NCBI GenBank assembly: GCA_963743885.1
Contig: CAVURJ010000002.1
Location: 433,706-497,705, forward strand
Origin: Candidatus Moraniibacteriota bacterium
Lineage (GTDB): Bacteria; Patescibacteriota; Minisyncoccia; Moranbacterales; UBA1568
Direction of reading: 5' to 3'
DNA length: 64,000 nt
The notes beneath the pieces were generated by a model. The model had not been told where the DNA came from. It saw only the letters and a list, made by a program, of their open reading frames with translations, and ran no database searches. The translations under genes and the position numbers were made by a program. Shown here in pieces: positions 24,064 through 62,908 of the stretch (its first letter is position 1; each line of letters opens with the position of its first letter).

Positions 24064-25489
24064 ACCACTCTTCCTTTGGCACTTCCCGGATTACCTTAAG
24101 CTCTGACGTCCTGACCTTCCCATCACAGTCATTCGCGACCACTATCGACCTCTTCGGCACCTCACACTCGAGGAGCGCCATGTCTTCCCATCCACGTCCG
24201 AACGCGAGAGCCCAGTTCTTGTCCGCTACATGCAGGCCGTAGGAGCAGCTTGATTCCTTGTCTTTGTTCACTTCGCATTCCGACTTCTTCCCCACCTCAT
24301 ACATGAACGATCTATCATAATCGGAATAGAACCTCACATCTCTCTTGTGAACCGCCTTGTATAGAATCGCGTTCTTTCCCTTCACGACGATCGGATACCG
24401 CTTGGCATAATCCTCGAACGTCGGCTTGAATGCTGGTATCACGATGAGATGAGAATCCTTGTTCATCTTCACGGTGACATACTCCTTCTGTCCGTTCATG
24501 ATACGCACGACGTTGTATCCGTGGCACTCGATGGACTTCGCAGAATATGCCGATACCATCGCCTCTCCGTAAAGCTTGACCTGAGAGCTTTCCCGCATCT
24601 CGCGGACCTGAGAGCTTTCCCGCATCTCGCGGACCTGAGAGCTTTCCCGCATCACGCCGACCTGAGAGCTTTCCCGCATCTCGCGGACCTGAGAGCTTTC
24701 CCGCATCACGCCGACCTGAGAGCTTTCCCACATCACGCGGACCTGAGAGCTTTCCCGCATCACGCCGACCTGAGAGCTTTCCCGCATCACGCCGACCTGA
24801 GAGCTTTCCCGCATCTCGCGGACCTGAGAGCTTTCCCGCATCACGCGGACCTGAGAGCTTTCCCGCATCACGCCGACCTGAGAGCTTTCCCGCATCACGC
24901 CGACCTGAGAGCTTTCCCGCATCTCGCGGACCTGAGAGCTTTCCCGCATCACGCCGACCTGAGAGCTTTCCCGCATCTCGCGGACCTGAGAGCTTTCCCG
25001 CATCACGCGGACCTGAGAGCTTTCCCGCATCACGCCGACCTGAGAGCTTTCCCACATCACGCGGACCTGAGAGCTTTCCCGCATCACGCCGACCTGAGAG
25101 CTTTCCCGCATCACGCCGACCTGAGAGCTTTCCCACATCTCGCGGACCTGAGAGCTTTCCCGCATCACGCCGACCTGAGAGCTTTCCCGCATCACGCCGA
25201 CCTGAGAGCTTTCCCGCATCTCGCGGACCTGAGCATCTCCTGAAAGATTCAGGAATGCCTCACCTTTGGAAATGACAACCGCATTCTCAAAATTGCGCTC
25301 GTACACGATAGGATCCTCGTACGTACCACCTTCGATGTAGATCGTGCCTTCAAAATCAGGCTTGATCTTATCGAGGTCTTTTTGTTTTCTAACGATTATT
25401 TCCTTTGACATAGCCATTTTGTGCTTATGTTCTGAAATTAAGAGATACGCTATACCGACCGCTGCGGCGGAAAAAAATATCATAGTCAT
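24056..25489 (-). CDS. Membrane-anchored protein with ~24 in-frame 9-aa repeats (MRESSQV[GR][VE]) and a C-terminal globular domain, 477 aa
   Basis: N-terminal TM helix; central block encoded by the 27-bp tandem array; sensible non-repetitive N- and C-terminal sequence in the same frame. Confidence 0.5.
   Translation of the reverse strand: MTMIFFSAAAVGIAYLLISEHKHKMAMSKEIIVRKQKDLDKIKPDFEGTIYIEGGTYEDPIVYERNFENAVVISKGEAFLNLSGDAQVREMRESSQVGVMRESSQVGVMRESSQVREMWESSQVGVMRESSQVGVMRESSQVRVMWESSQVGVMRESSQVRVMRESSQVREMRESSQVGVMRESSQVREMRESSQVGVMRESSQVGVMRESSQVRVMRESSQVREMRESSQVGVMRESSQVGVMRESSQVRVMWESSQVGVMRESSQVREMRESSQVGVMRESSQVREMRESSQVREMRESSQVKLYGEAMVSAYSAKSIECHGYNVVRIMNGQKEYVTVKMNKDSHLIVIPAFKPTFEDYAKRYPIVVKGKNAILYKAVHKRDVRFYSDYDRSFMYEVGKKSECEVNKDKESSCSYGLHVADKNWALAFGRGWEDMALLECEVPKRSIVVANDCDGKVRTSELKVIREVPKEEWYD
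24578..25238. repeat. Perfect/near-perfect 27-bp tandem repeat array, ~24.5 copies (GACCTGAGAGCTTTCCCGCATC[T/A]CGC[G/C])
   Basis: Directly visible head-to-tail 27-mers with only 2-3 variable positions; all three frames on both strands stay open across it. Confidence 0.9.
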
Positions 25490-27941: not shown

Positions 27942-28330
27942 ATGAAAAATGTGATTGGTTTTTTATCAGAGGATCGACCACTTTTTTTTCCTCCTTTCGA
28001 TGAGCTAGGGGGTCTTTCCCTATCGACTCTATGCTCACCGAAAGCAAACAAAAAAAGCTTCTTACGTTTGTAAAAAGCTTTCTTTTTTGCCTTATTTAAG
28101 CACTATGTCCTGCAAGGAACATTATGAGACATTGTATATAAAAACCCCTGGAGAATAAAAGTCTATAAAATGCCTGGCGCGGATATCCGTTTTTATTCCG
28201 TATCACGATATATTTCATCTCTTCGTGTCTACTTCCTCCCCGTCGAGGATCCCTGATATTTTTCCGCTGATCTTTTTTTAAAAAAATAACGGGTATTTAT
28301 TAAGCCCGATTTTACCAGCACTCGCTCGGA

Positions 28331-28354
28331 AACGTCCCGCCATGGCGGGACGTT
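28331..28354. other. Perfect 24-bp palindrome AACGTCCCGCCATGGCGGGACGTT
   Basis: Exact reverse-complement symmetry in the AT-rich intergenic region between the phage block and the GGDEF gene. Confidence 0.9.
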
Positions 28355-28394
28355 TCACTCGCTTCGTTTGATAATAGCAAATAGAATAAAAAAA

Positions 28395-28451: not shown

Positions 28452-29294
28452 TCATCCATCGCTGACGGTCAGATCCTGATACGAATCTTCGCGCATGATG
28501 CGTATCCCATTGCGACCACTTCCTTTGGTGGCGTAGAGAGCTGCATCAGCCCGTCTGGTGATGGCCGACAACACCTCGCCCCACTTCCTCTCTTCGAGCG
28601 GGATGATTCCAGATGCGATTCCGATGCTGAGTGTGACGCCGGCGCCGTGCGTCAACTGCTTGATCTCTTCGGAATTCGCGATCGCGTCCAACAGGCAGCG
28701 CTTTCCGTTAGTACAGTCCTCAAGCTTCTTCTTGAGCTCGCTGGCCTGCATCTGCGGCACCATGACCAAAAACTCATCTCCGCCTTGGCGCATGACGATA
28801 TCTATGCCGCGTGGGAAGACAGTCCGCAACACCTCGCCGACTGCTTGGATCACTTTATCGCCAGCCTGATGGCCATGCGAGTCATTGATCTTCTTGAGAT
28901 GATCGACGTCGATGAAGGCAACCGCCACTTTTATTCCTGGGCTCTCTAGCCGCTCCTTCTCGTTGAACTGGCGGAAGATAGCGCTGAGCTCTCGCTTAAG
29001 CGCGTCTTCTCCACCGCGCCGATTGAGGAGTCTGGTAAGCGGGTCGATAACCGCTTGCTCGTTCAGCTGGTAGATTTCTTTCCAGAGCAGAAAGAGCATC
29101 GCTGATGGCAGCAAGAGCTCGATTGTCAGGATAATCACTTCCCATATACCATCAACATCGAACAGTCTTGTTATATGATCAGCGATGATCGGCAGTATGA
29201 CGCAGGCTGCCAATATCTGCATCTTAGCCCGAAGGCTCAGCCGGCTGTTAATCGATTCGATGACATTGAGCACCCTTCTAAGAAGCAGTCTCAC
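28452..29294 (-). CDS. Diguanylate cyclase (GGDEF domain) with N-terminal TM segment, 280 aa
   Basis: N-terminal hydrophobic helices, then VMRQGGDEFLVMV (GGDEF) and the upstream RxxD-type region. Confidence 0.85.
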   Translation of the reverse strand: MRLLLRRVLNVIESINSRLSLRAKMQILAACVILPIIADHITRLFDVDGIWEVIILTIELLLPSAMLFLLWKEIYQLNEQAVIDPLTRLLNRRGGEDALKRELSAIFRQFNEKERLESPGIKVAVAFIDVDHLKKINDSHGHQAGDKVIQAVGEVLRTVFPRGIDIVMRQGGDEFLVMVPQMQASELKKKLEDCTNGKRCLLDAIANSEEIKQLTHGAGVTLSIGIASGIIPLEERKWGEVLSAITRRADAALYATKGSGRNGIRIMREDSYQDLTVSDG

Positions 29295-40283: not shown

Positions 40284-41204
40284 CTACGCCTTGAGATAGC
40301 GATGGATGGCGATATAGCTCGAGAGAACGCCGAGGCCCATGCCGAGGAGTGCCACGGACGGCAAGACGATCCAGAAGTATCCGAGGTAGAGGCCCATGAA
40401 GTTGCCCTGCGGGACCGCCCCTTCGGTCATCGGCGAGATATAGTACGCAACAACGAAGAGGAGGAGGATCGTGGCGAGCGCCGCCGCGAGGCCGTAGAGG
40501 ATGCCTTCAAAAACAAACGGCATGCGCACATACGTGTTGGACGCACCGACCAGGCGCATGATCTCGAATTCCTGGCGATGCGAGTAAATCGTGATGCGGA
40601 TTGTATTGAAGGTGATGAGGATAGCGATGAAGATGAACGCTGCTCCGAGAATCATGCCCGCCTTCTCCGTCGCAGCGCCGATACGCTCGAGCCGGTCAAA
40701 GATGCGCTTGTTCTTCTGATAGTTGATACGGCTCACGTCGCTCTGAAAATTCGAATTCTCGATACGGTTCACGATGACCTCATAATCCTCTGGACGCACC
40801 GATTTGATGACGACCGAGGCGAGCAGTGGGTTCTCCCCTATCTCGTCGATCGCCTGCGCGATAAGCGGATCATTGCCACTCTCAGCGAGGAAATCCTGAA
40901 GCGCCTGGTCGCGCGAGACATACGTCACAGAAGATATCTCCCTGGTATACTTGGTAAGTTCATCGCGGACGGCGAGGATACGCTCCTCCGGCACATCCGG
41001 ATTGAAGGAGACGCTCACACTCACCTTGTCGCGCATGCCTTCGAGCACAAAATGCGTCGTCGCCCCGAGGAGCGCCGAAAGTGTGACGATGAAGAGCGAG
41101 AGCGAAAGGATAGAGACCGTCGCGAAGGAGAGCCAGCCGTTGCGGCGGAAGTTCTGCCATCCCTCCCTGAAGGTCCTCCAGAGCTTGAGTGTTTTCATAG
41201 GCAT
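40284..41204 (-). CDS. ftsX: Cell division permease FtsX, ~306 aa
   Basis: Four-TM FtsX-like topology with the large periplasmic loop after TM1. Start moved to MPMKTL because the longer N-terminus translates a heptad repeat tract. Confidence 0.8.
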   Translation of the reverse strand: MPMKTLKLWRTFREGWQNFRRNGWLSFATVSILSLSLFIVTLSALLGATTHFVLEGMRDKVSVSVSFNPDVPEERILAVRDELTKYTREISSVTYVSRDQALQDFLAESGNDPLIAQAIDEIGENPLLASVVIKSVRPEDYEVIVNRIENSNFQSDVSRINYQKNKRIFDRLERIGAATEKAGMILGAAFIFIAILITFNTIRITIYSHRQEFEIMRLVGASNTYVRMPFVFEGILYGLAAALATILLLFVVAYYISPMTEGAVPQGNFMGLYLGYFWIVLPSVALLGMGLGVLSSYIAIHRYLKA

Positions 41205-41297
41205 GTATCTAGTATCTTGTATTTTGTATCTAGTATTTTGTATCTGGTATCCACTCCCCTCTCTTGCCTCCTTCGTCTTACCTCTCATCTCTTCCTA

Positions 41298-48672: not shown

Positions 48673-49179
48673 GTAGGACAGTATATGGTATCTGGTATCT
48701 AGTATTTAGTATACCGTATCTCGTATAAAGAGAAAGAAAAAAGGCGTCGCGATAACTTCATCGTCGACGCCTACACGCTCCACTTTACCGTCAAGAAACT
48801 ACGTCCGATAGGCGGTTTGGGCGATGCCACATCCGTCTCCCGGCTTGACCCGAAGCTTCGGTACTCTGCGTCAGGATCTTCTCAACAGAGATTCTCGATT
48901 CGGCGTTCACCTGCCGGCTCACCTTAGCTTTCGGTCTGGGTCGAGTAGCATAACGCTACGAACTCTGCCCTTTCAGCGCACAAGAGAGTTCCCTCGTGCC
49001 ACTCCAGGAATCATGTACGATCCCCTCTACTTTTCAAGCTTCAGCGCGTGCGGGAAGAGTCTACCAGCCAAAGGCCGCCATGTCAATGACTCATTGACCC
49101 TTGTTACAAACAGGCAACATCTTTCGGCTCTAATGAAGCAAATACATGTGATGCAAAGGTATTGAAACATTACGAAACA

Positions 49180-50067: not shown

Positions 50068-50134
50068 GCAACCGCTCGAAACTAAAAGGAACTCTCCGGA
50101 GTTCCTTTTTTCTTTTTTCAGTAAAATCTGGTGT

Positions 50135-50178
50135 TTTGGAAATGTAACATAATCTGACGGCCGTCGGATTATGTTACT
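50135..50178. repeat. R1 promoter/operator-like repeat, copy a (34-bp near-perfect palindrome GTAACATAATCTGACGGCCGTCGGATTATGTTAC)
   Basis: Contains the TGACGGCCGTC core shared with the other R1 copies. Overlaps the 3' end of the PaaX-like gene. Confidence 0.6.
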
Positions 50179-50773
50179 TTTTAGTTTTGTGGAGTTTCTG
50201 TGTTTTTGTAGATTTTTTGGAGCTAAAGAAATGTTTTTTAAGCTTCTGCTCATTATCAATCCAATCGACCGACATGATACGCACGAAAGAATCCGCTCGA
50301 TAGAGCGACACGAGCTCTGCGAGCTGCTTCTCGCACGGATGCGGCGAGACGAAGACGCTTTGCTGGATCCTATAGAATTTCAACTCCCAAAGGTGCTCAC
50401 GAAGAATAGTACGGAACTCGCGACTTTTCTCTGGGATATCAAACATCACGACGCGCCATTTACCATCCCATTGCCGCTTGTTCTTGAACTTGATTGAGTT
50501 ACCAAAGAGGAACTGGATACGCGCCTGGCGCTTTCCTTCCTCCGTCAAAACGAGCTTGAATGACCCATCCGGCTGCACGACCTCCCTCACGAGCTTTTCA
50601 TTACAAAGCCGCCTCACGGATCGTTTGATGCTCCGCTTATCGACCTCCTTCCACTCCCGTATCAATATCCCGAGCTTCCGATAGTACCGGATGGATGAAG
50701 TCTCCATACCGAGAGCAATTCCTCCCACAAGGAGGATGAGCAATTTCTGCTGCACTGGTCCAACCCTGAACAT
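50174..50773 (-). CDS. PaaX-family transcriptional regulator (N-terminal wHTH + PaaX_C domain), 199 aa
   Basis: N-terminus ..LLILLVGGIALGMETSSIRYYRKLGI..SIKRSVRRLCNEKLVREVVQPDGSFKLVLTEEGK.. and C-terminus WDGKWRVVMFDIPEKSREFRTILREHLWELKFYRIQQSVFVSPHP match the PaaX N and C patterns. Confidence 0.6.
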   Translation of the reverse strand: MFRVGPVQQKLLILLVGGIALGMETSSIRYYRKLGILIREWKEVDKRSIKRSVRRLCNEKLVREVVQPDGSFKLVLTEEGKRQARIQFLFGNSIKFKNKRQWDGKWRVVMFDIPEKSREFRTILREHLWELKFYRIQQSVFVSPHPCEKQLAELVSLYRADSFVRIMSVDWIDNEQKLKKHFFSSKKSTKTQKLHKTKK

Positions 50774-50794
50774 ATGATTTTACTTTACGTTTTT

Positions 50795-50925
50795 TTTCAT
50801 TTTCCCACCTTTTCAAATTGTAACACGAAATGACGGCCGTCATTTCAGGTAACAATTCAAAAACAGATACTAAATCATGAAAAGGTGACGCGAGCCGACG
50901 GCCGTCATTTGGGGTAACAATTGGT
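50795..50925. repeat. R1 copies b and c (ATGACGGCCGTCAT palindrome boxes; TTGTTA..TTACAAT promoter-like on the minus strand)
   Basis: b: TTGTAACACGAAATGACGGCCGTCATTTCAGGTAACAA. c: GGTGACGCGAGCCGACGGCCGTCATTTGGGGTAACAATT. Confidence 0.6.
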
Positions 50926-50987
50926 TTGGGGAAGATTTGGGGAGGTTTTGGGGAGATAGGAGGGAATCGGATGCCACGATTGGGTTG

Positions 50988-51112
50988 GGTACGTAATCAA
51001 TTACGTAATTATCTTTCTTTCCTCTCTAAAAAAGTGTTTACCACCGTCGTCCATGGACGACGTGGCTTGCCTGCCCGCCCCTGGAGAGACCACTTTTCTT
51101 CTCCTAAAGATT
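50988..51112. repeat. R2 repeat copy 1 (TACGTAATcAATTACGTAA box + CCACCGTCGTCCATGGACGACGTGG terminator palindrome)
   Basis: Near-identical to 54768-54895. On the minus strand the palindrome is followed by T6, so it terminates gene 51104-52600. Confidence 0.65.
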
Positions 51113-52600
51113 TCTTTCCAGTCGCTGGCTAATAATTTTCCCTATCTCCTTAAAAAGTTTTTTTCTCTTCTCTTGCGTATCTTCGTCTCTTTCATTTGAA
51201 AGATTTTCATAATAATGATCAACAACATTATCAGAAACTATATGAAGATAAGAAAATCTTTTCTTTGTCTCATTACAAGCCTTCGCCATGTGGCCAATTT
51301 CTGGATCAATAAAAACTCCATGCTTTTGAAAAAACTCAACAGCATCTTTTGTCTCATCAATTACTGATCCACACGTAACATGGCTTCCAAACAAAACATC
51401 CTGACGATCAGAAATTTCATTTTCAAAAATATTGCTCCACGTAATAGAATCTCCATGTACATAGCTCTCTGAACCACTCGCTATCCATTCGTTCGGAACA
51501 ATACCAGATTTAAGACTCCCAAGCTTTCCTATATATACAAATGTTGTGAATAAATGAAACCGAGCTAAAAATTTTATCATAAAATAAGCAGCGTCTCCCC
51601 AGATACTAAATTGACACCCAAGCAAAAGCACTCTGCAAGCACCAATATTTCCAATTTTCCATCTAAAATCTCCATCTCCATCAAACTCCACACCTTCAAA
51701 CAACCCAATACGATCAATATTCCCAAAAAGAATAACATCTGCCGTCGGAATACTCTCCAAGTTGGTATCTTTAAACGCCTGAAAAATCCTCTCATCATCA
51801 GCATGGATATAGGACACTTCTTTCTTCTTGTTCAGATTGCAAAAATAAGTAGCAACAAGATTGGCATAATGACGTATATAATCATATCCAGGGAAACAAC
51901 AGAGATAAAGCGTATCTCCATCTAAGAAAACCGTTGGCCTTTCAAAATTAAATAACTTATCATTCTTCTCATCGGTCGAGACATGCGCACTCCGATCATG
52001 ACTACCTATAACGCGCACTTTCGAAAATTCATCCTGTTTCGACCGAATAAGATGATGCATCTTCATTTCTATATACCGATGAAGAGCATCCCCCATAGAA
52101 TGTTCACTTGATAGACAGGTTGAAACATCGAAATGTTCCTTATTCGACGAAATATTCTTAACGAATTGCAAAACAGTATAGTCTCGTAACTCCGGCACTT
52201 CCTTCAACGAAACAAATTGAACCACTTCATGCTTTCCTTCTTCCATGTTGCGCGCTTCACTTTCATCGGCCACCTCGGCTACATAATACAATCCGAGCCA
52301 GTGCGTATTCTGAATAATCATTTTCTTCGTCGTCAAAAGCTCTAGGCTCGTAATGCGAAGATTGGTTTCTTCTAGAATTTCACGAATAAGTGAAGACTCA
52401 ATATCTTCTCCAAATTCAACTGTTCCGCCAGGCAAAAGCCATGCTCCCGCGCCAATCCTTTGATCTGATTTCTTTTTCAAAAGTAACACGCGTTCCTTGG
52501 TCTTATCAAAAACGATAGCCCGCGCATAAAAACGAAATATCGGCTGATTTTGATCACTGCTCATACGCTCAAATAGAAAACTTACACTACCAGTATACAC
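51104..52600 (-). CDS. Nudix hydrolase fused to a nucleoside phosphorylase/AMP-nucleosidase-like (PNP_UDP_1) domain, 498 aa
   Basis: N-terminal Nudix box GGTVEFGEDIESSLIREILEETNL. C-terminal ..VILFGNIDRIGL..ACRVLLLGCQFSIWGDAAYF..GSVIDETKDAVEFFQKHGVFIDPEIGHMAKAC..YLHIVSDNV resembles the PNP/MTA/AMP nucleosidase family. Confidence 0.55.
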   Translation of the reverse strand: MYTGSVSFLFERMSSDQNQPIFRFYARAIVFDKTKERVLLLKKKSDQRIGAGAWLLPGGTVEFGEDIESSLIREILEETNLRITSLELLTTKKMIIQNTHWLGLYYVAEVADESEARNMEEGKHEVVQFVSLKEVPELRDYTVLQFVKNISSNKEHFDVSTCLSSEHSMGDALHRYIEMKMHHLIRSKQDEFSKVRVIGSHDRSAHVSTDEKNDKLFNFERPTVFLDGDTLYLCCFPGYDYIRHYANLVATYFCNLNKKKEVSYIHADDERIFQAFKDTNLESIPTADVILFGNIDRIGLFEGVEFDGDGDFRWKIGNIGACRVLLLGCQFSIWGDAAYFMIKFLARFHLFTTFVYIGKLGSLKSGIVPNEWIASGSESYVHGDSITWSNIFENEISDRQDVLFGSHVTCGSVIDETKDAVEFFQKHGVFIDPEIGHMAKACNETKKRFSYLHIVSDNVVDHYYENLSNERDEDTQEKRKKLFKEIGKIISQRLERNL

Positions 52601-52647
52601 CCATCCAAAAACCTAGTCAGTTCTCAAATTTGACACAAAATCTAGTG

Positions 52648-52815
52648 TTTTGGAAAGGTGACGCGAGCCGACCCTCCGGAGGCGGGTAAACGGCCACCCG
52701 CCTAGACTCGGCGAGGCTGGTCATTTGGGGTTACTTTTTGGAAATGAGAAGATTGAGAGGAAAACGGCTGGGTTGGGTACGTAATCAATTACGTAATTAT
52801 CTTTCTTTCCTCTCA
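52648..52815. repeat. R1 copy d (interrupted by a 47-nt hairpin insertion) plus partial R2 copy 2
   Basis: TTTTGGAAAGGTGACGCGAGCCGAC[cctccggaggcgggtaaacggccacccgcctagactcggcgaggctg]GTCATTTGGGGTTAC, then GGGTACGTAATCAATTACGTAATTATCTTTCTTTCCTCTC. Confidence 0.55.
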
Positions 52816-52872
52816 AGAAAAAAGGATGGCCTTTACGGTCATCCTTTGCAAGTCATTGCCTGATCTTTGCGT

Positions 52873-53334
52873 TCAAGCCGAAACCAAAACCTCCCAGCCA
52901 CGCTCCCGAAGCTCGCCGCGAAGCTTCATCCACAGCTTGCCGAGATGGTTCAGCCCCTGCCAGTCCGGACCGCGCCCCCAGAACGAATCCTTGGGCGAAT
53001 CCTCGACAAGCTCGGCGTTACCAGTCTCGAGTAGCTTCTCGCGGACATACGCATGCTGTTCAATCTTCATCCGGAGAAACTTCTCCATGATATCAAGCTT
53101 GATATCGTTCCAATCAGCACGAACCTTGTCCTGATACTTCCGGCCGATCTTTTTGGAATCATGCGCCGACATCGCCGTCCGGATCTCTTCGACAATAGCC
53201 GGATCGGTAAACTTCGCCGCCTGATATGCATGCTCGACGGTCATCCAAATGACACCATCTTGCAAAATCGCAAACGACGAGAAATTGGAAAGGAAATACC
53301 GCTTACCTTCGTAAAACAGAACTTTCTCTTGCAT
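52873..53334 (-). CDS. NADAR (YbiA/DUF1768) domain protein, ~153 aa
   Basis: MQEKVLFYEGKRYFLSNFSSFAI...TVEHAYQAAKF...KKIGRKYQ...LLETGNAELVEDSPKDSFWGRGPDWQGLNHLGKLWMKLR: the full NADAR signature. Start trimmed to the internal Met. Confidence 0.8.
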   Translation of the reverse strand: MQEKVLFYEGKRYFLSNFSSFAILQDGVIWMTVEHAYQAAKFTDPAIVEEIRTAMSAHDSKKIGRKYQDKVRADWNDIKLDIMEKFLRMKIEQHAYVREKLLETGNAELVEDSPKDSFWGRGPDWQGLNHLGKLWMKLRGELRERGWEVLVSA

Positions 53335-53419
53335 GTCCCACCTCCTGCCAGAAAAAAGAAACGTAAAAGAACTTCCGTAGAGTATCGCAAGAAATAGCCA
53401 AGAAGTCAATTTCGAATGA

Positions 53420-53560
53420 TTTTGGAAAGGTGACGCGAGCCGACGGCCGTCATTTGGGGTAACAATTCTGATTTGTGAGGTTTTGGGATGAGGACAAATT
53501 AGGTACGTAATCAATTACGTAATTATCTTTCTTTCCTCTCTAAAAAAGGTGTTTAGTTAA
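53420..53560. repeat. R1 copy e plus partial R2 copy 3
   Basis: TTTTGGAAAGGTGACGCGAGCCGACGGCCGTCATTTGGGGTAACAATT ... AGGTACGTAATCAATTACGTAATTATCTTTCTTTCCTCTCTAAAAAAGGTGTTTAG. Confidence 0.6.
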
Positions 53561-53638
53561 TTTTCTTCTTAAGTAAAGAAAAGGAGGTCCGTCAGATCCT
53601 GACAAACCCCCTATTTAGCGCTTAATCGAAGCGAGGCG

Positions 53639-54061
53639 CTATCCGCTAACTGGGCATTCAACTCCGAGCGGAACCTCGATACCATTGAGCTCCATAGTCT
53701 GGCGCCGTACTTCAAAAAAGGCATACCAGTTGGAAATCTCGTTGAGATCGATAGCACTCGGAATCTGGAGCAGCCGATTCAGGTATGCGAAGGCTTTCGG
53801 TGAAGAAAGCGCCCACTCCCTTGCCATGGTAGTGACATCAGCATTGCCAGAAAACTCCACCAGGCACTTGGCCATCGATGCATCGACGGCGTAGAGCAAG
53901 GACAAGACTTCTTGGACTGCCTCGGTGGGCGTTGTCCACATCTGGCCGGCATCCAATGCTATCAATATCCCGAGTGGTGATTCCATCCGTTTTCTGATGC
54001 TGGCGAACAACAGCGCATCAGATGCATCACCTGGCATGAACACAAACTTGCAATCTGACAT
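53639..54061 (-). CDS. Hypothetical protein, 140 aa
   Basis: KFVFMPGDAS...ILIALDAGQMW.. looks Rossmann-like. Family unknown. Confidence 0.3.
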   Translation of the reverse strand: MSDCKFVFMPGDASDALLFASIRKRMESPLGILIALDAGQMWTTPTEAVQEVLSLLYAVDASMAKCLVEFSGNADVTTMAREWALSSPKAFAYLNRLLQIPSAIDLNEISNWYAFFEVRRQTMELNGIEVPLGVECPVSG

Positions 54062-54072
54062 GGTAGACCTCC

Positions 54073-54474
54073 TCAGACGACTGTGGTAGCGGTACCGGAA
54101 AGATACTTCCGGATCTCGTCGACATAGCGTACAGGCACGATGACAGAGCCCTTTCTCGTACTAGTGTTGTAGTTCGAAAAGATAAACTCCGATTCGGGCC
54201 TCCGATGACTTCTCGTGTAGAGTAATACGAGGTCCTTCCGGAACATCCCCTTCATCGTCACGTTGTACGGTGGCGATACCATCTCGTAAGCCGTGATAAC
54301 GAGTGAGACGTCGATACTCGGTCCGCCTTCCCTCCCGAACCAAAAAACAACTGGGGGCGGTTCGCATTCAAGCACTGTGAGGCATCCGAGCGAAAGCAGG
54401 CAGCGCTGTGCGTTCGATCCCTCGAATACGCCAAGTGTGTGTGTTTGCGACGAATCGCTGTTTGGATGGGTCAT
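54073..54474 (-). CDS. Hypothetical protein, 133 aa
   Basis: Co-operonic with 53639-54061. A degenerate R1-like sequence lies upstream (54590-54650). Confidence 0.3.
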   Translation of the reverse strand: MTHPNSDSSQTHTLGVFEGSNAQRCLLSLGCLTVLECEPPPVVFWFGREGGPSIDVSLVITAYEMVSPPYNVTMKGMFRKDLVLLYTRSHRRPESEFIFSNYNTSTRKGSVIVPVRYVDEIRKYLSGTATTVV

Positions 54475-54767
54475 CCGACTTCTCCTTGTAAAAAGAACTG
54501 CCCTATCATGACGTAGAGCATCGCCGTTACTGCCTTACGACAGCCACCTCCGCATCCGCAGAGGAATTCAGGGTATAGTAGCCTACACGCAAAAACATGT
54601 CAATTCCGCATGAAATCAGGGGTTTTGAAAATGTATCATAATTCCACCTTCCGGAGACAGGCGAGTGATCTGGAATATGTCTTACTATTTTCGCGATTGC
54701 GTAAATTGTAAGACTTTTTGTTTAAGAGAAAAAAGGGAGGAAAAGATGTGGCAGAAAAAGAATGAAT

Positions 54768-54895
54768 ACGTAATCAATTACGTAATTATCTTTCTTTCCT
54801 CTCTAAAAAAGGTGTTTACCACCGTCGTCCATGGACGACGTGGCTTGCCTGCCCGTCTCTGGAGGGACCACTTTTCTTCTTCTTAGAAAACAGTT
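54768..54895. repeat. R2 repeat copy 4 (full, with the CGTCGTCCATGGACGACG palindrome)
   Basis: TACGTAATCAATTACGTAATTATCTTTCTTTCCTCTCTAAAAAAGGTGTTTACCACCGTCGTCCATGGACGACGTGGCTTGCCTGCCCG... Confidence 0.65.
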
Positions 54896-54901
54896 CTTAT
54901 A

Positions 54902-55792
54902 TTAAAACAGGTCGTCAAGAAAAACCTTTATAGCAAGTGCTGGACCAGTAATATCAGTAATATCAAATTTTATTGTAAAAGAATGCTGGGAACTATCTAT
55001 AAGAATTTTATAACTAACAATATCTTTATAAAAACGGCCCGCACTCAAAAATCTCTCTACTTTGCCCAATAACTCTTTTGTATTAAAAAATTCACCATCC
55101 TTTTTAATTTCTTCCTCAAGATTTTCCGCTTGAAATTTTCTAACAACGGCCAATGGTAGTATCCGTCTTAAAAGAAGAATGCATGCATTTGATTTAGCAT
55201 GTTCGTAATTAAAATTAAATTCTTCACATAATGCCGCAATATCTTTCGGAACCGCCTTTAAAAGAGTGGCGGAGAAAATTGTTACCGTAGCAACTTTTTT
55301 GTCTGTAGGCTCATCCACATTTTCTGAAGATTCTAATTCACCAGGAAAAATTAATGGGCCATTATCCATATAATTATTCAAAAGAAAACCTTTATTTTGA
55401 AATAGGGCTTCCAATGGACCTATAAGACTACGAAGCTTATAGATTCTCTCATTATTTTGTTGGGTCTTGTAATCTTTCTTCTCTAGTTTTCCAAGCTCAT
55501 CTCGCCAAGAAATCAACATGCGATGTGTAAGCATTGATAAACTCTCAATCATCTTTTCTGGTATCTCAATTTCTACAGCATGAGGTTCCCCGTCACACAT
55601 CTTGTTAGGGTCTTCATAATTCAAGTTAAAACTATCAATTTTATTTCCAATATCAACGTATGCTTCCAGCAAATCATCGATCTGCTCACGAACATCATCA
55701 TTGACAGATATGTGTCTTAAATCCTGTATATCCTTAAGAAAACGATAAATCGCAATCCTAAAATATTTCAAAGTTGTAGAATAAATCCTCAT
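54902..55792 (-). CDS. Hypothetical protein in the AT-rich block, 296 aa
   Basis: Low-GC ORF. No known motif. Confidence 0.35.
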   Translation of the reverse strand: MRIYSTTLKYFRIAIYRFLKDIQDLRHISVNDDVREQIDDLLEAYVDIGNKIDSFNLNYEDPNKMCDGEPHAVEIEIPEKMIESLSMLTHRMLISWRDELGKLEKKDYKTQQNNERIYKLRSLIGPLEALFQNKGFLLNNYMDNGPLIFPGELESSENVDEPTDKKVATVTIFSATLLKAVPKDIAALCEEFNFNYEHAKSNACILLLRRILPLAVVRKFQAENLEEEIKKDGEFFNTKELLGKVERFLSAGRFYKDIVSYKILIDSSQHSFTIKFDITDITGPALAIKVFLDDLF

Positions 55793-55797
55793 ACAAA

Positions 55798-56211
55798 TTA
55801 TCTATTCCTACATTGCTCTTGATACGCTGGATTTGATTTTACAAAATTCAATGCTTTTTCCAAATACGAGGCGCCTTGAAATTTAGGAATCACAGTATAG
55901 GTAAGCATTGCCTGATAAGCCCCCGAAGAGTTATTGGCTCGAACTCTGGAAACCAAAGAATTAAACTCCTCCTTATTTAAGGTTCCAATAAAAGCATTCT
56001 GGGTACTAAAAGCACTCGCTTCATCAGCATAGCATTGAGGAAACGTTTCGTATGATTTTCCTATCTCTTGTGAATCGCTACCCATATTTACGAAAACAGA
56101 TCCGTCAATATGATTCAAAACATGTTTTATTTCGTGAGCTAACAATATCGCAGTGAGCAAATCATCTTTGGCACTATATTTCGGAGAAACAAGAATATCA
56201 TACTCATCCAA
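55798..56211 (-). CDS. HExxH zinc-metallopeptidase-like domain protein (possibly the C-terminal part of a frameshifted larger gene), 137 aa
   Basis: AILLAHEIKHVLNH (HExxH). The annotated start is a TTG; the frame stays open 5' until a TGA only ~25 codons upstream, overlapping the 3' end of 56139-56888. Confidence 0.35.
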   Translation of the reverse strand: MDEYDILVSPKYSAKDDLLTAILLAHEIKHVLNHIDGSVFVNMGSDSQEIGKSYETFPQCYADEASAFSTQNAFIGTLNKEEFNSLVSRVRANNSSGAYQAMLTYTVIPKFQGASYLEKALNFVKSNPAYQEQCRNR

Positions 56212-56888
56212 AGATTGGGTGGGAGAAAAAGAAACATACCCTCAGCCCCGGCCATTTCCTGATCTGATTTGGCATATTGTATATTTAAACAATTTGATAC
56301 AGCTCTAACTCCTTCGCTATATACAATATTACCTTTATCTCCGGATTGTTCCATGCGCTGCGAAATCAGACTTATTGCCCTTTTAAATTCGTCCGGGATA
56401 CCATATCCAATATCTCTTATGCAATAAAATGGGTTAAGATCGTCAAAGAACCAATCATTATTTTCATATATGAAACCAGCATAGCGCCGCAAGCTGCTCT
56501 CTCCATTTTTACATTCGACCACAGAACAATCTCGTATCGTTTGAATCGCATATCCTTTACCGTCTCTTACAACCGCGCTATTTTCAACAAAAGCAAGATT
56601 CCCCGACTTATCATTAAGTTTTAAATATATCTCTCTAGAGATTTTCTGTTTCGCTTCATTCGTAAAATATAAATCGTATATTTTCCCATAATCACCCCTA
56701 TCTGATAACTCAACCATCTCTTTAATTCTTTGCTCTAACTTGCCAGAATTCTGATCCAATACAATGGCTGGCGAGCTCGTTCTCATACTAGCCATAACAA
56801 TAATAGCGCCTCCAAGCGCCAAGAAAATCCACAGGAATATTTGAGTTGTTCTAATCTTCATAATGTTTACAAACAAAAAAAGAAACAA
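56139..56888 (-). CDS. Secreted/membrane-anchored hypothetical protein, 249 aa (nonsense-like C-terminal tail; possible frameshift into 55798-56211)
   Basis: N-terminal signal/TM helix. The last ~30 residues (MFLFLPPNLWMSMIFLFLRNIVPKMICSLRYC) look like out-of-frame read-through, and a T5 run sits at the junction. Confidence 0.35.
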   Translation of the reverse strand: MFLFLFVNIMKIRTTQIFLWIFLALGGAIIVMASMRTSSPAIVLDQNSGKLEQRIKEMVELSDRGDYGKIYDLYFTNEAKQKISREIYLKLNDKSGNLAFVENSAVVRDGKGYAIQTIRDCSVVECKNGESSLRRYAGFIYENNDWFFDDLNPFYCIRDIGYGIPDEFKRAISLISQRMEQSGDKGNIVYSEGVRAVSNCLNIQYAKSDQEMAGAEGMFLFLPPNLWMSMIFLFLRNIVPKMICSLRYC

Positions 56889-56993
56889 CGAAAGAAAAAA
56901 TCAAGAAAGTGTTTGTTTATGCCTCAAGTATATCATTTTCCCTTAAAAAAGGTACTTGACCCCTTTTCTTCTTGTTTTCTTCTCTCATAAAAT

Positions 56994-57512
56994 TTAAGAT
57001 TTTTCTTTGTTTACGCGCCCCATCAAGCCCATTGATAAATACCTTCGTTTTGCATTACAAAAAACAATATCATTGTTCAAAATGTCTTTTCTGAGTCCAT
57101 GGTACGCCATCCTCAAATTACAAGCGAAGTCTTCCAAGTTCAACATTATTTTCCCATTTGGTGTAGCTTCAAAATGATGCCCCGCTTTGTTTGCGTCAGT
57201 AAAAACATACGTTCCTCCTTCAGCATAAGAATGGACAAGTCCACAGCGAAGATCTTCCCATAATTTTTCAGAGTTATAATTCGGAAGATATTTTTCCGTA
57301 AAATTAATAAACCTCGCTCTTGAACCGCCTTTCACACTTCCCTTTTCCAAGCCAGCAAAAAACCCAGCCATAGCATCTATAAAACATGCTCCTAAAATAA
57401 AACCGGCCAGTTTAGCCTCTCCGGCAATTGATGCTCTTTCAATATCCCCATATTCCCAGCCAAGGAGATATTCGTCCAAAGTTTCCACTAATTTTTCTTT
57501 TGTGAGATTCAT
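56994..57512 (-). CDS. Hypothetical protein, 172 aa
   Basis: ORF in the AT-rich block. Confidence 0.3.
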   Translation of the reverse strand: MNLTKEKLVETLDEYLLGWEYGDIERASIAGEAKLAGFILGACFIDAMAGFFAGLEKGSVKGGSRARFINFTEKYLPNYNSEKLWEDLRCGLVHSYAEGGTYVFTDANKAGHHFEATPNGKIMLNLEDFACNLRMAYHGLRKDILNNDIVFCNAKRRYLSMGLMGRVNKEKS

Positions 57513-57518
57513 ATGAAT

Positions 57519-57863
57519 TTAGAAACGAGAGCGTCCTGCTCTTAAAATAGCAACAAATTCGGAAAGTCTAGAAGAGTCATCAACATACCCACCACTTGGG
57601 CCATCATTTGCAAATTGCCAATAACCCTCTTCACACCAAACAACACCGGTATTTATTGTCTTGCCTCCATCTATGTATACAACTTCAATATCACTCCCAA
57701 AATGAGGGATATCAAAGACCCGACAAACAACCGCGTCAATATACGGATAGACTTTCCCAATCGATATCCAACTTTTTGACTGTACCTGTGGTTTTTCGAT
57801 TAACACAATATAATTAAATAAATTATTTAGATTTGATAATAATTTCTGCCGCTTTTCCTGCAT
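57519..57863 (-). CDS. Hypothetical protein, 114 aa
   Basis: ORF in the AT-rich block. Confidence 0.3.
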   Translation of the reverse strand: MQEKRQKLLSNLNNLFNYIVLIEKPQVQSKSWISIGKVYPYIDAVVCRVFDIPHFGSDIEVVYIDGGKTINTGVVWCEEGYWQFANDGPSGGYVDDSSRLSEFVAILRAGRSRF

Positions 57864-58596
57864 TTTTCAGCAACTCTTTTGAAAGAATTGGCTCTTTTGT
57901 TTCTGAAATACTAGGTGCACAAAAAACATCTGCTGCTTTTTTCATAAATTCTTTTTTAATTTCCGTATTTATTGTATTTTCTTCAGACTCACTTGTTTCA
58001 CCAATACTCAAAAGTATATTGTGATACGTTTGCGCCAGTGTTTTCCTATTGGCATAGTCATTTCTCAACTTCACATAATACGAATATTGGGCAGCAGAAA
58101 ACCATACAGCGCTTATAAATATAAAATCCAAAATGTAAAATTCAAACCTTTCAAACCAAGGTTTTCCATTTGCTTGATGAAGCGCCCAAAAAAATGATCC
58201 CGCTAACGCAGAAAAAGAAAGAAAAATAACAACTAGCCAGTTTATAATACTTTTTTTATATTCCTCTTCTTGTTCCGCGTAAGCTTCAGCCATCTTTCTT
58301 AATTCTCTTTTATTTATCTCGCTCTGTTTTTGATTATTAGCCTCCTCGAGGGAAGAAACTTTTTTTATTAATTCTTCCTTCTCTACTTCCAATCCACTTA
58401 TCTTTAAACTAGAGTCCAACTCTTTATCAGAAATTCTTTTATCAAAATCAGACTTGGCATCCGTAAACGCTTGTTTGGAGGATACTAATTCCTCTTCAAG
58501 TTTAGAATTATCTTCTGATAATTTAGCGACTTGAGATTCTAGATTTCGTTTCTCATTTTGCAACTCTATATAAGAAGCTTTATATGCTTTACCCAT
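57823..58596 (-). CDS. Membrane protein with long N-terminal coiled-coil and two TM helices, 257 aa
   Basis: K/E-rich heptads then WLVVIFLSFSALAGSFFWALH and FYILDFIFISAVWFSAAQYSYY. Confidence 0.4.
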   Translation of the reverse strand: MGKAYKASYIELQNEKRNLESQVAKLSEDNSKLEEELVSSKQAFTDAKSDFDKRISDKELDSSLKISGLEVEKEELIKKVSSLEEANNQKQSEINKRELRKMAEAYAEQEEEYKKSIINWLVVIFLSFSALAGSFFWALHQANGKPWFERFEFYILDFIFISAVWFSAAQYSYYVKLRNDYANRKTLAQTYHNILLSIGETSESEENTINTEIKKEFMKKAADVFCAPSISETKEPILSKELLKNAGKAAEIIIKSK

Positions 58597-60604: not shown

Positions 60605-60795
60605 ATTCGTAATTATTAGTCAGTTAACGGGTTAACGCGTTAACGAGTTTATTAATGCGATGAATTAGATAATTTACTATCCAGTTAACGGGTTTGTAAG
60701 AGTCCGAACACCGAATTAACGGGTTAACGGGTTCTTAAGAAACCAACTAACAGGTTACTGTGTTAACGAGTTTATTAATGCGATGAATTAAATGC

Positions 60796-61188
60796 TTATT
60801 TACGTTGGATAAATTCTTTTTCTTTTCTTTTTTTCTCGAGATAACTGATGAATGCTCCTATTTGACCGGAAAGTTTTTCCAACTCATCCATAATTCTGTC
60901 AAAATCCTTCTTTGCGACGTATCCGATAGCGAATGCTATATGCATCTGATTTCTTGTCTCTCCCGCCGAGCCCTTGGCTATCTTCAGGAAACGGATGAAT
61001 TCATTGTTATTGTTCTTCTCAAATCCCTCGACTATATTGGAACTGACTGACACTATAGCTCTCTGTATCTGATCTCTCAGACCGAAGTCTTTGGCAAACT
61101 TTCCTTGTGATGTAATATCGTATACATCCTTTGTCAAAGCCAAACTCGATTTCCAAATGTTCAGCTCTTCGAATTTTTGTATTTTCAT
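60796..61188 (-). CDS. Four-helix-bundle protein (23S rRNA intervening-sequence protein family), 130 aa
   Basis: FEELNIWKSSLALTKDVYDIT..FAKDFGLRDQIQRAIVSVSSNIVEGFEKNNNNEFIRFLKIAKGSAGETRNQMHIAFAIGYV matches the TIGR02436-type signature. Confidence 0.75.
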   Translation of the reverse strand: MKIQKFEELNIWKSSLALTKDVYDITSQGKFAKDFGLRDQIQRAIVSVSSNIVEGFEKNNNNEFIRFLKIAKGSAGETRNQMHIAFAIGYVAKKDFDRIMDELEKLSGQIGAFISYLEKKRKEKEFIQRK

Positions 61189-61297
61189 AACAACGTATCA
61201 GTTGTTCGGTTAACGAGTTCACGAGTTAACGGGTTGGGAATACAGACCTTGCATTTAATTAAACTCGTTAGCCCGTTAACGCGTTAACATATTAATT

Positions 61298-61849
61298 TTA
61301 ACGGACGATTACTCTTGCTGCTCGTATTACTTTGTCTCCGAGGCGGTAGCCTTTTTGGATGACTTTGGAGATTTGGTGATTGCTTTCTTCCTGTTCACTG
61401 TTCACTGCTGACTGTTCACTGTCTATGGCCTCGTGAATGGTAGGGTCGAACGCCTCCCCTTCCTTCGCTTCGATCGTCTGCATACCATTGTCAGTGAGGA
61501 CGGTCTCGAGCTGCTTCTCGATGTATTGGATGCCGACCACCCACGGGCTCTCCTTCTGTTCAGCCGGCACGTGCATCGTGGCGGAGCGGAAATTGTCGAG
61601 GACTGGGATGATATCGAGCACGAGCTTCTCTATCAGGTATCCGCCGAGCTCCTTCTGGGATTCCGCCTGGCGCTTCTTGTAGTTCTCGAAGTCCGCCTGG
61701 CAGCGCTTGAGATCGTTCAGATACTCTTCGGCCTTCGACTGCCACTCCGATTCTTCCTTCATTTCTTCGGTAATGGTCGTCGGCTCATCTGTATCAATAA
61801 TCTTCTCGTCGCCTGACTCTTCGACTTCTTGTTTCTTTTTGTGCGGCAT
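61298..61849 (-). CDS. grpE: Nucleotide exchange factor GrpE, 183 aa
   Basis: Coiled-coil N-terminus, then ..VLDNFRSATMHV.., FDPTIHEAI and GYRLGDKVIRAARVIV. Confidence 0.9.
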   Translation of the reverse strand: MPHKKKQEVEESGDEKIIDTDEPTTITEEMKEESEWQSKAEEYLNDLKRCQADFENYKKRQAESQKELGGYLIEKLVLDIIPVLDNFRSATMHVPAEQKESPWVVGIQYIEKQLETVLTDNGMQTIEAKEGEAFDPTIHEAIDSEQSAVNSEQEESNHQISKVIQKGYRLGDKVIRAARVIVR

Positions 61850-62006: not shown

Positions 62007-62750
62007 TCAGGAAAATGGGATAAAAAGGACAAGTATCAACGATGAGGAGAGCAGTTTCTTCATGTATTCGATCAGGGACTTATTCTTGGCGTACTCCATG
62101 CGCTTGGGACCGATGATAGCGAGCATACCGCGCTCACCTTCTTTGTTCTCATATGGCGCAACGATCATGGAGCAATTGTCGATACCGGAGATAGGGTTCT
62201 CGTCGCCGATGAAGATGCGGGTCTCACCGCTCTTCAGCTTGACCATGACGTCGTCGAGCTTCTCATCGAGCGAGTCGAGCGTCTCCACCAGACGGCAGAG
62301 CTCGTCGATCTCCTGGAACTCCGGCTTCTCGATGAGTTCCTTCATGCCGAAGTCATAGAGCTCGTCGCGGCCGATGATGCCGGAGACAGCCAGGTTGCCC
62401 GAGAGCGCCGAGAGGAGCTTGGCGGTGCTGCGACCCATGCGGGTCTGCTTGGCCTTCATCACGAGAAGCTCTTTCTGGAGCTTGCGCTGATCCTCGCGGG
62501 AAAGGTCCTCATCACCCATCATCTCTTCGACATACAGGCGATAGCCCTGATCGGTCGGGATGCGGCCGGCGGACGTGTGCGGCTGGTAGAGGTAGCCCTC
62601 CTCCTCGAGCGCCACCATATCGTTCCGAAGCGTCGCCGAAGACACCGGGAACTCGAAGTGCTCAAGGAGCGCCTGCGAGCCGACTGGCAGCGCGGTCTTG
62701 GTATACAGCTCGACGATGGCCGAGAGGACTTGTTTTTGACGAGAGTTCAT
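62007..62750 (-). CDS. hrcA: Heat-inducible transcription repressor HrcA (short form), 247 aa
   Basis: MNSRQKQVLSAIVELYTKTALPVGSQALLEHFEFPVSSATLRNDMVALEEEGYLYQPHTSAGRIPTDQGYRLYV. Confidence 0.85.
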   Translation of the reverse strand: MNSRQKQVLSAIVELYTKTALPVGSQALLEHFEFPVSSATLRNDMVALEEEGYLYQPHTSAGRIPTDQGYRLYVEEMMGDEDLSREDQRKLQKELLVMKAKQTRMGRSTAKLLSALSGNLAVSGIIGRDELYDFGMKELIEKPEFQEIDELCRLVETLDSLDEKLDDVMVKLKSGETRIFIGDENPISGIDNCSMIVAPYENKEGERGMLAIIGPKRMEYAKNKSLIEYMKKLLSSSLILVLFIPFS

Positions 62751-62881
62751 AGGGAAGCCGGTATTATGTATCCGGTATTATGTATCATGTATAAGATGCG
62801 AGATTCTTCGCTTCGCTCAGAATGACCAAAATTACAAATTTTCGGATCATTCGTATCGATATATACAGTATAAAATATGGT

Positions 62882-62908
62882 TTAGCAGTCGTCAAGAGAG
62901 AGTGCTAA
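62882..62908. promoter_or_regulatory. CIRCE operator TTAGCAGTC-N9-GAGTGCTAA
   Basis: One mismatch to the TTAGCACTC-N9-GAGTGCTAA consensus; ~130 nt upstream of the hrcA start. Confidence 0.8.

Follow-up and report, generated by a model that had tools for sequence, protein, structure and literature searches.

Two short repeats, R1 and R2, recur in a region that holds the gene for a small PaaX-like protein in a Candidatus Moraniibacteriota bacterium, and the distribution of R1 points to a regulator that is accompanied by its own operator. The stretch analyzed, referred to here as the window, comprises the whole 64,000 nt from position 433,706 to 497,705 of contig CAVURJ010000002.1; coordinates within it are given on the plus strand unless a strand is stated. 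All of the genes from 50.1 to 58.6 kb lie on the minus strand and, in plus-strand order, the region reads R1a with the PaaX-like gene, R1b, R1c, a long R2, a Nudix-PNP gene, R1d, a short R2, a NADAR gene, R1e, a short R2, orf140, orf133, R1f, a long R2, orf296, five more genes and dnaK. The interpretation favored here, with a probability of roughly 0.6, is that R1 is the operator of a short PaaX-family autoregulator of 199 aa and has been locally amplified, together with R2, beside newly gained genes; this judgment draws on sequence comparisons and predicted structures.

The regulator gene (50174..50773, minus strand) encodes a winged helix-turn-helix (wHTH) and a Cas2-like domain, with no C-terminal effector domain. 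Its middle domain matches PF20803 (PaaX_M, Cas2-like) with 77 bits (E = 1.2e-21, cutoff 24 bits). The N-terminal wHTH part has no Pfam match and was assigned by its fold in an AlphaFold2 (AF2) model (mean predicted local distance difference test score, pLDDT, 72.5), in which helices at residues 6-22, 27-44 and 49-58 and a beta wing at 62-76 precede a beta-alpha-beta-beta-alpha-beta domain. The top Foldseek match of this model is E. coli PaaX (8a39, E = 5.7e-4), and the best PDB matches also include Rv0674 and then Cas2 structures. The protein ends about 25 residues past the Cas2-like domain and has no PaaX_C match; against the TIGR02277 PaaX equivalog it scores 29.1 bits, far below the cutoff of 264.55. 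Matches to Cas2 models are marginal (Pfam, 24.0 bits against a cutoff of 23.8; TIGR01573, 26.0 against 24.5). No paa genes are found among the neighbors of the regulator in the window or in its close relative L082.

Relatives of the regulator, 180-200 aa in length, are present in Moranbacteria and in other bacteria of the Candidate Phyla Radiation (CPR), with 151 matches in a first search and 2639 representatives, clustered at 50% identity, in an exhaustive search at E <= 1e-10. Eighty metagenome loci encoding such relatives were fetched for comparison of their flanks. The gene in each of these loci tends to have a palindrome of about 30-46 bp just 5' and a near-identical one just 3', at times over the stop codon; the typical palindrome is about 34 bp long and has a CGGCCG-type center and co-varying arms. 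A strict scan for the center CG[GA][CT]CG and no fewer than 9 matching arm pairs out of 12 recovered 64 palindromes in 650 kb as against 0 in shuffled sequence, and nearly all of them fall within about 100 nt of the gene ends. By looser criteria, loci of the close group carry a copy upstream (20 of 26), downstream (21 of 25) or on both sides (17 of 24), where the background is 0.03 per flank, and the two copies of a locus are 600-710 bp apart. The centers are mostly ACGGCCGT, ACGATCGT or ACGGTCGT, and the close group shows a visible register of (T)ATCAT-N6-ACGGCCGT-N6-ATGAT(A). Distant homologs (34-44% identity) display the same layout with other centers (GCGATCGC, GCGATAGC, GCCATGGC or GCTGGAGC). 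Clustering of all open reading frames (ORFs) in the fetched loci revealed no conserved neighbor of the regulator. The palindromes are thus linked specifically to the protein, and this part of the single PaaX-like repressor proposed in the preliminary description is supported; the coordinated regulon of neighboring genes that it was to control is not.

The arms of the palindromes vary between loci and agree within a locus. More specifically, among 53 center-anchored sites both members of the pair change at 14 of 15 arm positions, and the arm covariation score is 0.90 compared with 0.22 for shuffled and 0.14-0.18 for slid sequences, the paired fraction being partly built in because the sites were picked for being palindromic. 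The upstream copies also carry promoter features. The motif TGnTAnnnT, often as TGnTACAAT or TGnTATAAT in the gene-proximal arm, occurs in 12 of 25 upstream copies versus 7 of 32 downstream copies, and many loci have exactly 6 nt between the end of the -10 hexamer and the ATG, a spacing that implies an mRNA without a leader. Of the family genes, 33 of 76 have a -10-like hexamer 5-8 nt ahead of the start, versus 111 of 541 other ORFs of the same loci (odds ratio 3, p = 3.5e-5). Because the -10 is inside the upstream palindrome, the palindrome covers the core promoter. Pairings of recognition-helix residues with particular centers, such as an acidic residue with GCGATCGC, gave suggestive groupings that are confounded with phylogeny and were set aside.

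One locus, L018, carries seven copies of two subtypes of a ACGATCGT-centered palindrome (5950-6660 and 10650-10900). They bracket both the PaaX-like gene and a gene for a 1260-aa FG-GAP surface protein in the nested order A-gene-A'-B-gene-B-A'-A.

The five copies of R1 in 5 kb that had been described earlier are all present in the window, and a sixth, degenerate copy had been missed. All six lie inside 50.1-54.9 kb and none in the remaining 59 kb; TGACGGCCGTCA, with at most one mismatch, occurs four times in the window against 0.19 expected, each time inside this interval. The pattern of the R1-type palindrome is GTWAC-N6-YGACGGCCGTCR. R1a (50134-50182), which reads GTAACATAATC-TGACGGCCGTCG-GATTATGTTAC, is the downstream palindrome of the PaaX-like gene and overlaps its stop codon; it has an RNA fold z of -7.7 and an equivalent copy in L082. 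R1b (50810-50858, minus strand) is the upstream palindrome, with a fold z of -4.8, and is homologous to the sole upstream copy in L082. Its gene-proximal arm holds an extended -10, TGTTACAAT, at 50825..50817 on the minus strand, about 35 nt before the ATG. The other copies are without TGTTACAAT, in agreement with the earlier remark that a TTACAAT-type -10 is seen only upstream of the PaaX-like gene.

R1c (50875-50923), 65 bp from R1b and absent from L082, is an asymmetric, type II copy (GTTACCCCAAATGACGGCCGTCGGCTCGCGTCACC on the minus strand) whose half-site GACGGCCGTCGGCTCGCGTCAC is common to L015 and L025. R1e (53420-53468) is of the same type and is identical to R1c over about 41 nt. R1d (52648-52739) also has type II arms and a TTTTGGAAA motif on either side. 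The 47-nt insertion reported for one R1 is real and is found in this copy, where the segment (52673-52719) takes the place of the central GGCC. In all three type II copies one half resembles R1b and the other half, GACGGCCGTCGGCTCGCGTCACC, is that at the sites flanking the L015 and L025 regulators, GGTGACGCGAGC being their arm type. R1f (54623-54692), the degenerate sixth copy, has arms GTATCATAATTCCA and TGGAATATGTCTTAC, one of which matches an arm of the L003/L004 type (TGGAATTATGATACATT); a 24-nt center related to the R1d insert replaces its core. R1d and R1f are therefore the copies without the conserved core, and R1c and R1e have it intact. The fold z is -1.4 for R1d and -0.5 for R1f; R1e has no hairpin potential, the type II copies not folding (z = +0.1). 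The type II copies may be lower-affinity sites of the 199-aa regulator, or sites of a second PaaX-like paralog of the same genome, P0017, which is 65-68% identical to it.

Even at E <= 1, nothing in Rfam matches the interval 49.9-55 kb. The match of a type II 18-mer to one viral contig lies inside GC-rich coding DNA and was dismissed as chance. A perfect 28-nt palindrome with a CCATGG center (GAAACGTCCCGCCATGGCGGGACGTTTC, 28329-28356) stands in an intergenic region beside a 280-aa minus-strand ORF (28452-29294); it is not beside a PaaX-like gene and was rejected as a site of the module.

Comparison with three metagenome-assembled genomes, L082-L084, is revealing of the history of the locus. 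Their core genes are 81-83% identical to the window at the DNA level (about 18% divergence), and in their gene order HrcA-GrpE-DnaK is followed, across a spacer of 153 nt, by Nudix-PNP and then by a spacer holding a single R1, the PaaX-like gene and R1. Only these two palindromes are present, and the TTACGTAA box of R2, NADAR, orf133/140 and the low-GC block next to dnaK are all missing. Their Nudix promoter region (GGGTGTATACT...) is shared with the window and has no R1d- or R2-like sequence ahead of it, and the Nudix-PaaX spacer of L082 has a degenerate counterpart of the R2 core, TTATGCAATTCATTACGCATA. Because the close relative has only two palindromes and no R2 box, NADAR, orf133/orf140 and the low-GC block are lineage-specific insertions in the window. 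From the same gene order it follows that the Nudix-PaaX spacer, junction J1, is ancestral and that junctions J2, J3 and J4 are copies made in the lineage of the window. On this sequence comparison, about 6 kb of new genes was gathered between dnaK and Nudix while J2-J4 were copied, each insert being bounded by R2 and R1. The long R2 after orf296 (J4) begins with sequence matching the surroundings of the Nudix stop codon, so that ordinary duplication or recombination looks likelier than a site-specific cut. The module occupies the same position in the window and in L082 despite their divergence, and both sides of the regulator differ between the two.

The Nudix-PNP gene itself, which is low in GC, is 90% identical at the DNA level between the window (51088-52606) and L082 (9959-11477), compared with 81-83% for hrcA, grpE and dnaK and 79% for the PaaX-like gene; this high identity may come from a recent exchange or from tighter constraint. 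Its homologs in more distant CPR genomes (56-66% identity) are found in unrelated contexts with no adjoining PaaX-like gene.

The two full and two partial copies of R2 that had been reported correspond to four R2 cores, of which two carry a 78-nt extension. The core (TACGTAATCAATTACGTAA plus flanks) occurs four times against 0 expected, always in 50.1-54.9 kb (50976-51033, 52764-52821, 53490-53547 and 54753-54810, all minus strand), and the extensions, with a CGTCGTCCATGGACGACG hairpin, lie at 51028-51105 and 54806-54883. The long copy in the 3' flank of the Nudix gene (50976..51105, minus strand; fold z = -2.5) consists of a hairpin (CCACGTCGTCCATGGACGACGGTGG), a T-run and the invariant core with a TTACGTAA double box, and has a degenerate counterpart in L082. 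The long copy in the 3' flank of orf296 (54753..54883, minus strand) is 94% identical to it. At the short copies the shared T-run is preceded by gene-specific hairpins, namely by NADAR's own hairpin and T-run at 52764..52821 and by the orf140 terminator hairpin (53612..53582) at 53490..53547. R2 had earlier been taken for a terminator, and it is indeed joined to a hairpin and T-run. However, its invariant part, GAGAGGAAAGAAAGATAATTACGTAATTGATTACGTA in the gene direction, follows the T-run and is the TTACGTAA double box, while the hairpins before the T-run are gene-specific or, in the long copies, of about 10 bp with CCATGG; R2 is therefore not simply a terminator. In the long copies the T-run begins 7 nt after the hairpin, and for this reason a simple terminator scan does not call them.

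Double TTACGTAA boxes with 11-12 nt spacing are also found in intergenic regions of related genomes, typically 20-56 nt past a stop codon, and in L012 and L009 one lies about 60 nt upstream of an R1-like palindrome. To judge from these sequences, R2 is an instance of a lineage-wide 3'-end motif, joined here to a terminator rather than a terminator as such; termination does not account for its invariant TTACGTAA box. No viral or metagenome contig gave an exact match to the R2 core, and the sole match among species-representative genomes, a TTACGTAA tandem repeat in a parA-parB spacer, was discarded as unrelated. R1c and R1e agree throughout a stretch of about 41 nt, and all four copies of R2 have the same core, yet the spacers between R1 and R2 vary in sequence and length, which points to constraint, or gene conversion, acting on both boxes. 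The CCCCAAA tracts in these spacers are phased at about 11 nt. Runs resembling GTATCTnGTATTT, with a 14-nt period, occur at 41197-41265, 48680-48734 and 62753-62793, two of them directly 5' of the engB and hrcA start codons, and phased runs may be a general trait of intergenic DNA in this genome.

The genes between these junctions carry promoters of their own. Sigma70-like promoters, all on the minus strand, are predicted for Nudix (52592..52620, CTGACT-17-TATACT, its -10 region kept in L082, which has no R1 there), for NADAR (53381..53409, TTGACT-17-GATACT, with TG) and for orf133 (54575..54603, TTGACA-17-TACTAT). The statement in the preliminary description that the R1 palindrome overlaps a -35-like site fails at these cargo genes, because the separate promoter of each unit lies a short way downstream of R1. 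Its further statement that every gene is preceded by R1 and followed by R2 has three exceptions: the PaaX-like gene is followed by R1a and not R2, orf133 and orf140 share one junction, and orf296 is followed by R2 and is not preceded by R1.

On this evidence the 199-aa protein most likely has R1 as its cognate site; it would contact R1 through the winged helix and dimerize through the Cas2-like domain. The ancestral unit would be palindrome-gene-palindrome. A dimer at the upstream palindrome, over the extended -10, would occlude RNA polymerase and make the gene self-repressing, like E. coli PaaX at Px. Some 650 bp away, the downstream copy could be a second operator acting by looping or as a roadblock, and perhaps also a hairpin at the mRNA 3' end. 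The old Nudix-PaaX spacer, with the R2 3'-end box, the phased CCCCAAA tract and R1, would then have been duplicated into three other junctions as the foreign genes built up, and the core-intact R1c and R1e may couple NADAR and the promoter of the regulator gene to the regulator, or may keep neighboring units insulated from one another. Binding and repression by the 199-aa protein are inferred, and its control of the cargo genes is hypothetical.

The Nudix gene (51104..52570, minus strand) encodes a 488-aa fusion of a Nudix domain (NUDIX, 61 bits, 1.5e-16, cutoff 21.1) to a nucleoside phosphorylase/nucleosidase fold. The latter, scored by sequence, stays under the PNP_UDP_1 cutoff (17.8 bits against 25.1) and is borne out by the AF2 model (pLDDT 91.8), in which Foldseek relates the N-terminal part to NUDT15/MutT and the C-terminal part to MTAP/MTAN/PNP structures (E about 1e-10, target-normalized TM-score about 0.7). 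The fusion is widespread in CPR bacteria. The NADAR protein (52873..53334, minus strand; 153 aa, YbiA type) matches PF08719 with 118 bits (5e-34, cutoff 35.1) and passes the YbiA-type model TIGR02464 (112.7 bits, cutoff 73.7), whereas it falls short of the antiphage NADAR model NF053876 (DS32; 90.5 bits, cutoff 240). Hidden Markov models uphold the earlier assignments of PaaX-like (PaaX_M, 1e-21), Nudix and NADAR proteins, and the fold upholds that of the PNP-type domain.

The remaining genes of the region have no assigned function. Orf133 (54073-54474) and orf140 (53639-54061) form one unit of two genes (53639..54474, minus strand) and have no Pfam, NCBIfam or PADLOC match. The single other homolog of orf140 is encoded on contig L085, at a distance of about 1 kb from an R1-like palindrome; the contig begins within such a palindrome (1-30, TAATCTCACGGCCGTGAGATTATGTTAC). 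Between R2 and dnaK is a block of six low-GC genes (54902..58596, minus strand; 0.31-0.44 G+C), absent from L082 and without family matches. PADLOC returned only single-domain matches to Cas2 models and to the candidate families PDC-M42C and PDC-S07, which are matched by the NADAR and Nudix domains, and no full described system. No recombinase domain was found in the 20 ORFs scanned across 44-64 kb.

Several observations weigh against R1 as the operator of the 199-aa regulator. Symmetry at nearly all arm positions, including the variable N6, exceeds what an operator typically needs and is explained no less well by intrastrand pairing or by quasi-palindromes correcting themselves; part of it, as noted above, comes from the choice of sites. 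The putative recognition helix is fairly conserved although the arms vary widely. At the cargo genes the R1 center lies about 60-90 bp upstream of the predicted starts (about 70 bp for R1e at NADAR) and not over the promoters, and at two of the three cargo units, Nudix (R1d) and orf133/140 (R1f), R1 is coreless. R1c, R1d and R1e could be sites of P0017 instead, because their arm type occurs in other lineages (L015, L025). Finally, mismatches on the sense strand are more often G:T than A:C (23 versus 10, p = 0.035), a weak hint of an RNA or single-strand hairpin; this wobble-pair asymmetry, meant to separate an RNA hairpin from a duplex site, is a weak signal.

It is accordingly conceivable, if unlikely, that R1 is an RNA or single-stranded DNA hairpin, serving as a terminator, 3'-end stabilizer or processing signal, and that the wHTH/Cas2-like protein reads a stem-loop with a CGGCCG tip. 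Such a role is kept in consideration because of the near-perfect arm symmetry, including N6, and the slight G:T excess. The almost fully pairing arms with compensatory change at 14 of 15 positions, the strong folding of R1a and R1b, the tolerance of asymmetric centers such as CGGTCG, and the RRM-like (RNA recognition motif-like) Cas2 fold with its invariant beta1 Asp all agree with a hairpin, as do several downstream copies with A-run/T-run flanks like bidirectional terminators (L030; R1a is flagged by a terminator scan). However, the -10 of a leaderless promoter is contained in the upstream copy, which would therefore be left out of the gene's own transcript, the type II copies are conserved between the window and L015 and do not fold, most downstream copies have no U-tract, and the DNA bound by known PaaX proteins is duplex. 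The same symmetry could arise without selection if quasi-palindromes were corrected by template switching. Slightly less probable is a hot spot of gene gain, in which the palindromes are recombination sites or anchors that capture foreign genes by the PaaX/Cas2-like gene, and the junctions are footprints of integration. The inserts absent from the close relative, each bounded by a copy of R2 and R1, the mosaic G+C and the differing regulator flanks in the window and L082 would suit this history; so would the arm types of other lineages in one array (an R1f arm of L003/L004, the R1c/d/e half of L025/L015), the palindrome adjoining the only orf140 homolog and the extra palindromes around the large FG-GAP gene of L018. 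Against it stand the lack of a recombinase among the ORFs scanned in 44-64 kb, the absence of reciprocal hybrid sites (R1c, R1d and R1e are all the same hybrid), cargo genes with promoters and terminators of their own, the match of J4 to the Nudix stop-codon region, which resembles ordinary duplication or homologous recombination, and the constant position of the module across about 18% core-gene divergence. A more elaborate version, in which the palindromes are the sites of an unrecognized CPR gene-capture platform, with integration at or next to the CGGCCG core leaving hybrids and the Cas2-like protein (invariant beta1 Asp) recognizing or nicking the site, is quite improbable.

The preliminary description had favored a coordinated ADP-ribose or nucleotide catabolic regulon, or a defence/counter-defence island, under one repressor. 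The matches of NADAR and Nudix to PADLOC candidate families, and a variable region with unassigned gene pairs and low-GC genes, count in favor of this, but neither version is supported and both must be considered very doubtful. The cargo is not conserved beside the regulator, L082 having only Nudix there and no R1 upstream of it; NADAR is of the YbiA type and fails the antiphage model; the Nudix-PNP fusion has many contexts in CPR bacteria; PADLOC yields candidate-family domains only; R1 is coreless at two of the three cargo units; and 2.9 million viral contigs hold a single relative of the regulator. The genes of the region are thus no conserved ADP-ribose or defence system. It had also been asked whether R1 and R2 might be generic mobile repeats of the kind of miniature inverted-repeat transposable elements (MITEs), with no regulatory role. 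Identical short cores within diverged spacers and the TTTTGGAAA motif on each side of R1d would fit such elements. The window's own genome is also represented by a Logan contig, assembled from another run, that stops about 137 nt upstream of the regulator gene, and assemblies seem to break at these repeats. The repeats are nevertheless confined to one 4.8-kb stretch of 64 kb, related genomes have palindromes essentially only at the ends of PaaX-like genes, inspection showed neither terminal inverted repeats nor target-site duplications in any consistent form, and the scanned collections contain no further R2 core, so that mobile repeats are the least probable explanation. Integron attC and dif/Xer-like readings were rejected for want of a nearby recombinase and of the right box sequences and spacing, and a MITE reading was disfavored for want of dispersed copies in the window.

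Some other features of the window were noticed. Between dnaK and grpE, which adjoin directly in L082, a segment (60613-61314) contains a low-G+C gene for a 130-aa 23S rRNA intervening-sequence protein (PF05635, 60796-61188) with TAACGGGTTAACG-type repeats (families D7 and D15) in its flanks. A CIRCE-like (controlling inverted repeat of chaperone expression) repeat, TTAGCAGTC-N9-GAGTGCTAA, lies at 62882-62908 upstream of hrcA (62007-62750, minus strand), as would be expected for an HrcA-controlled operon. An element that opens with an A-run and then GCGGCCTACCAGGTCGCCGCGCATTGGCGC is present in three copies (740-870, 10076-10205 and 18001-18110), each just 3' of a minus-strand gene. Across about 60 nt the copies have 95-98% identity, and across 125 nt two of the three have 96%; there is no Rfam match. 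A 27-nt tandem repeat of about 30 copies (24443-25363) within a 477-aa ORF encodes nonapeptide repeats of the kind MRESSQVGV / MRESSQVRE.

Very few transcription factors have been characterized in CPR bacteria (Patescibacteria). No experimentally defined operator for these bacteria was found in the searchable literature, and searches combining PaaX with Cas2 or with CPR taxa returned nothing relevant to the module. The short PaaX-like proteins form a large family, with about 2,600 representatives after clustering at 50% identity. Each has an easily recognized candidate site on both sides of its gene and a predicted leaderless, self-repressed promoter, which would offer a directly testable regulator-operator pair for an uncultivated lineage. 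The locus also illustrates the copying of a regulatory spacer along with acquired genes. Should the symmetric co-variation of the arms reflect hairpin formation or recombination and not duplex binding, the module would be less ordinary than a repressor paired with an operator.

Several known systems resemble the module in part. Integron cassette arrays and pdif/Xer modules likewise consist of co-directional genes of mixed origin parted by repeated imperfect palindromes with variable centers; they differ in that no integrase or other recombinase was found near the locus, the genes here carry their own promoters and terminators, and the R1 sequences, whose ends are GTWAC / GTSAC, showed on reading neither RYYYAAC/GTTRRRY boxes nor an 11-6-11 dif architecture. 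CRISPR Cas2 and VapD share the ferredoxin-like fold, an FDIPE-type beta1 with Asp and QxSVF motifs. In contrast to the domain here, fused to a DNA-binding wHTH, CRISPR Cas2 is a stand-alone protein of about 90-110 aa next to cas1 and an array. No CRISPR-like array was present among the 20 largest direct-repeat families of the window, and no cas genes among the annotated neighbors in L082-L084 and the other annotated loci, not every ORF of the window having been scanned for Cas1.

PaaX of E. coli and Pseudomonas, the phenylacetate repressor, has the same N-terminal winged helix followed by the Cas2-like domain PF20803, and no structure matches the protein of the window better than 8a39, that of E. 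coli PaaX. The E. coli repressor binds TGATTC-N27-GAATCA and autorepresses its Px promoter by steric hindrance of RNA polymerase (PMC9493321), and because it does so, a long, widely spaced inverted repeat over its own promoter fits the PaaX family; the predicted site here is a palindrome of about 34 bp. Unlike PaaX, which is about 305 aa long with a C-terminal phenylacetyl-CoA-binding domain, the protein of the window has 199 aa without that domain, no paa genes are nearby, a second copy of the site comes right after the stop codon, and the site has a conserved GC-rich center and fully symmetric arms that vary between lineages. The looping repressors of lac, gal and deo resemble the module in having two near-identical palindromes, here 600-710 bp apart, one of them over the promoter. 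In the present case the loop would enclose the whole regulator gene, with the second site at or over the stop codon. The bracketing of a gene by two sites and their local amplification beside gained genes would be new features of the repressor-with-operator type.

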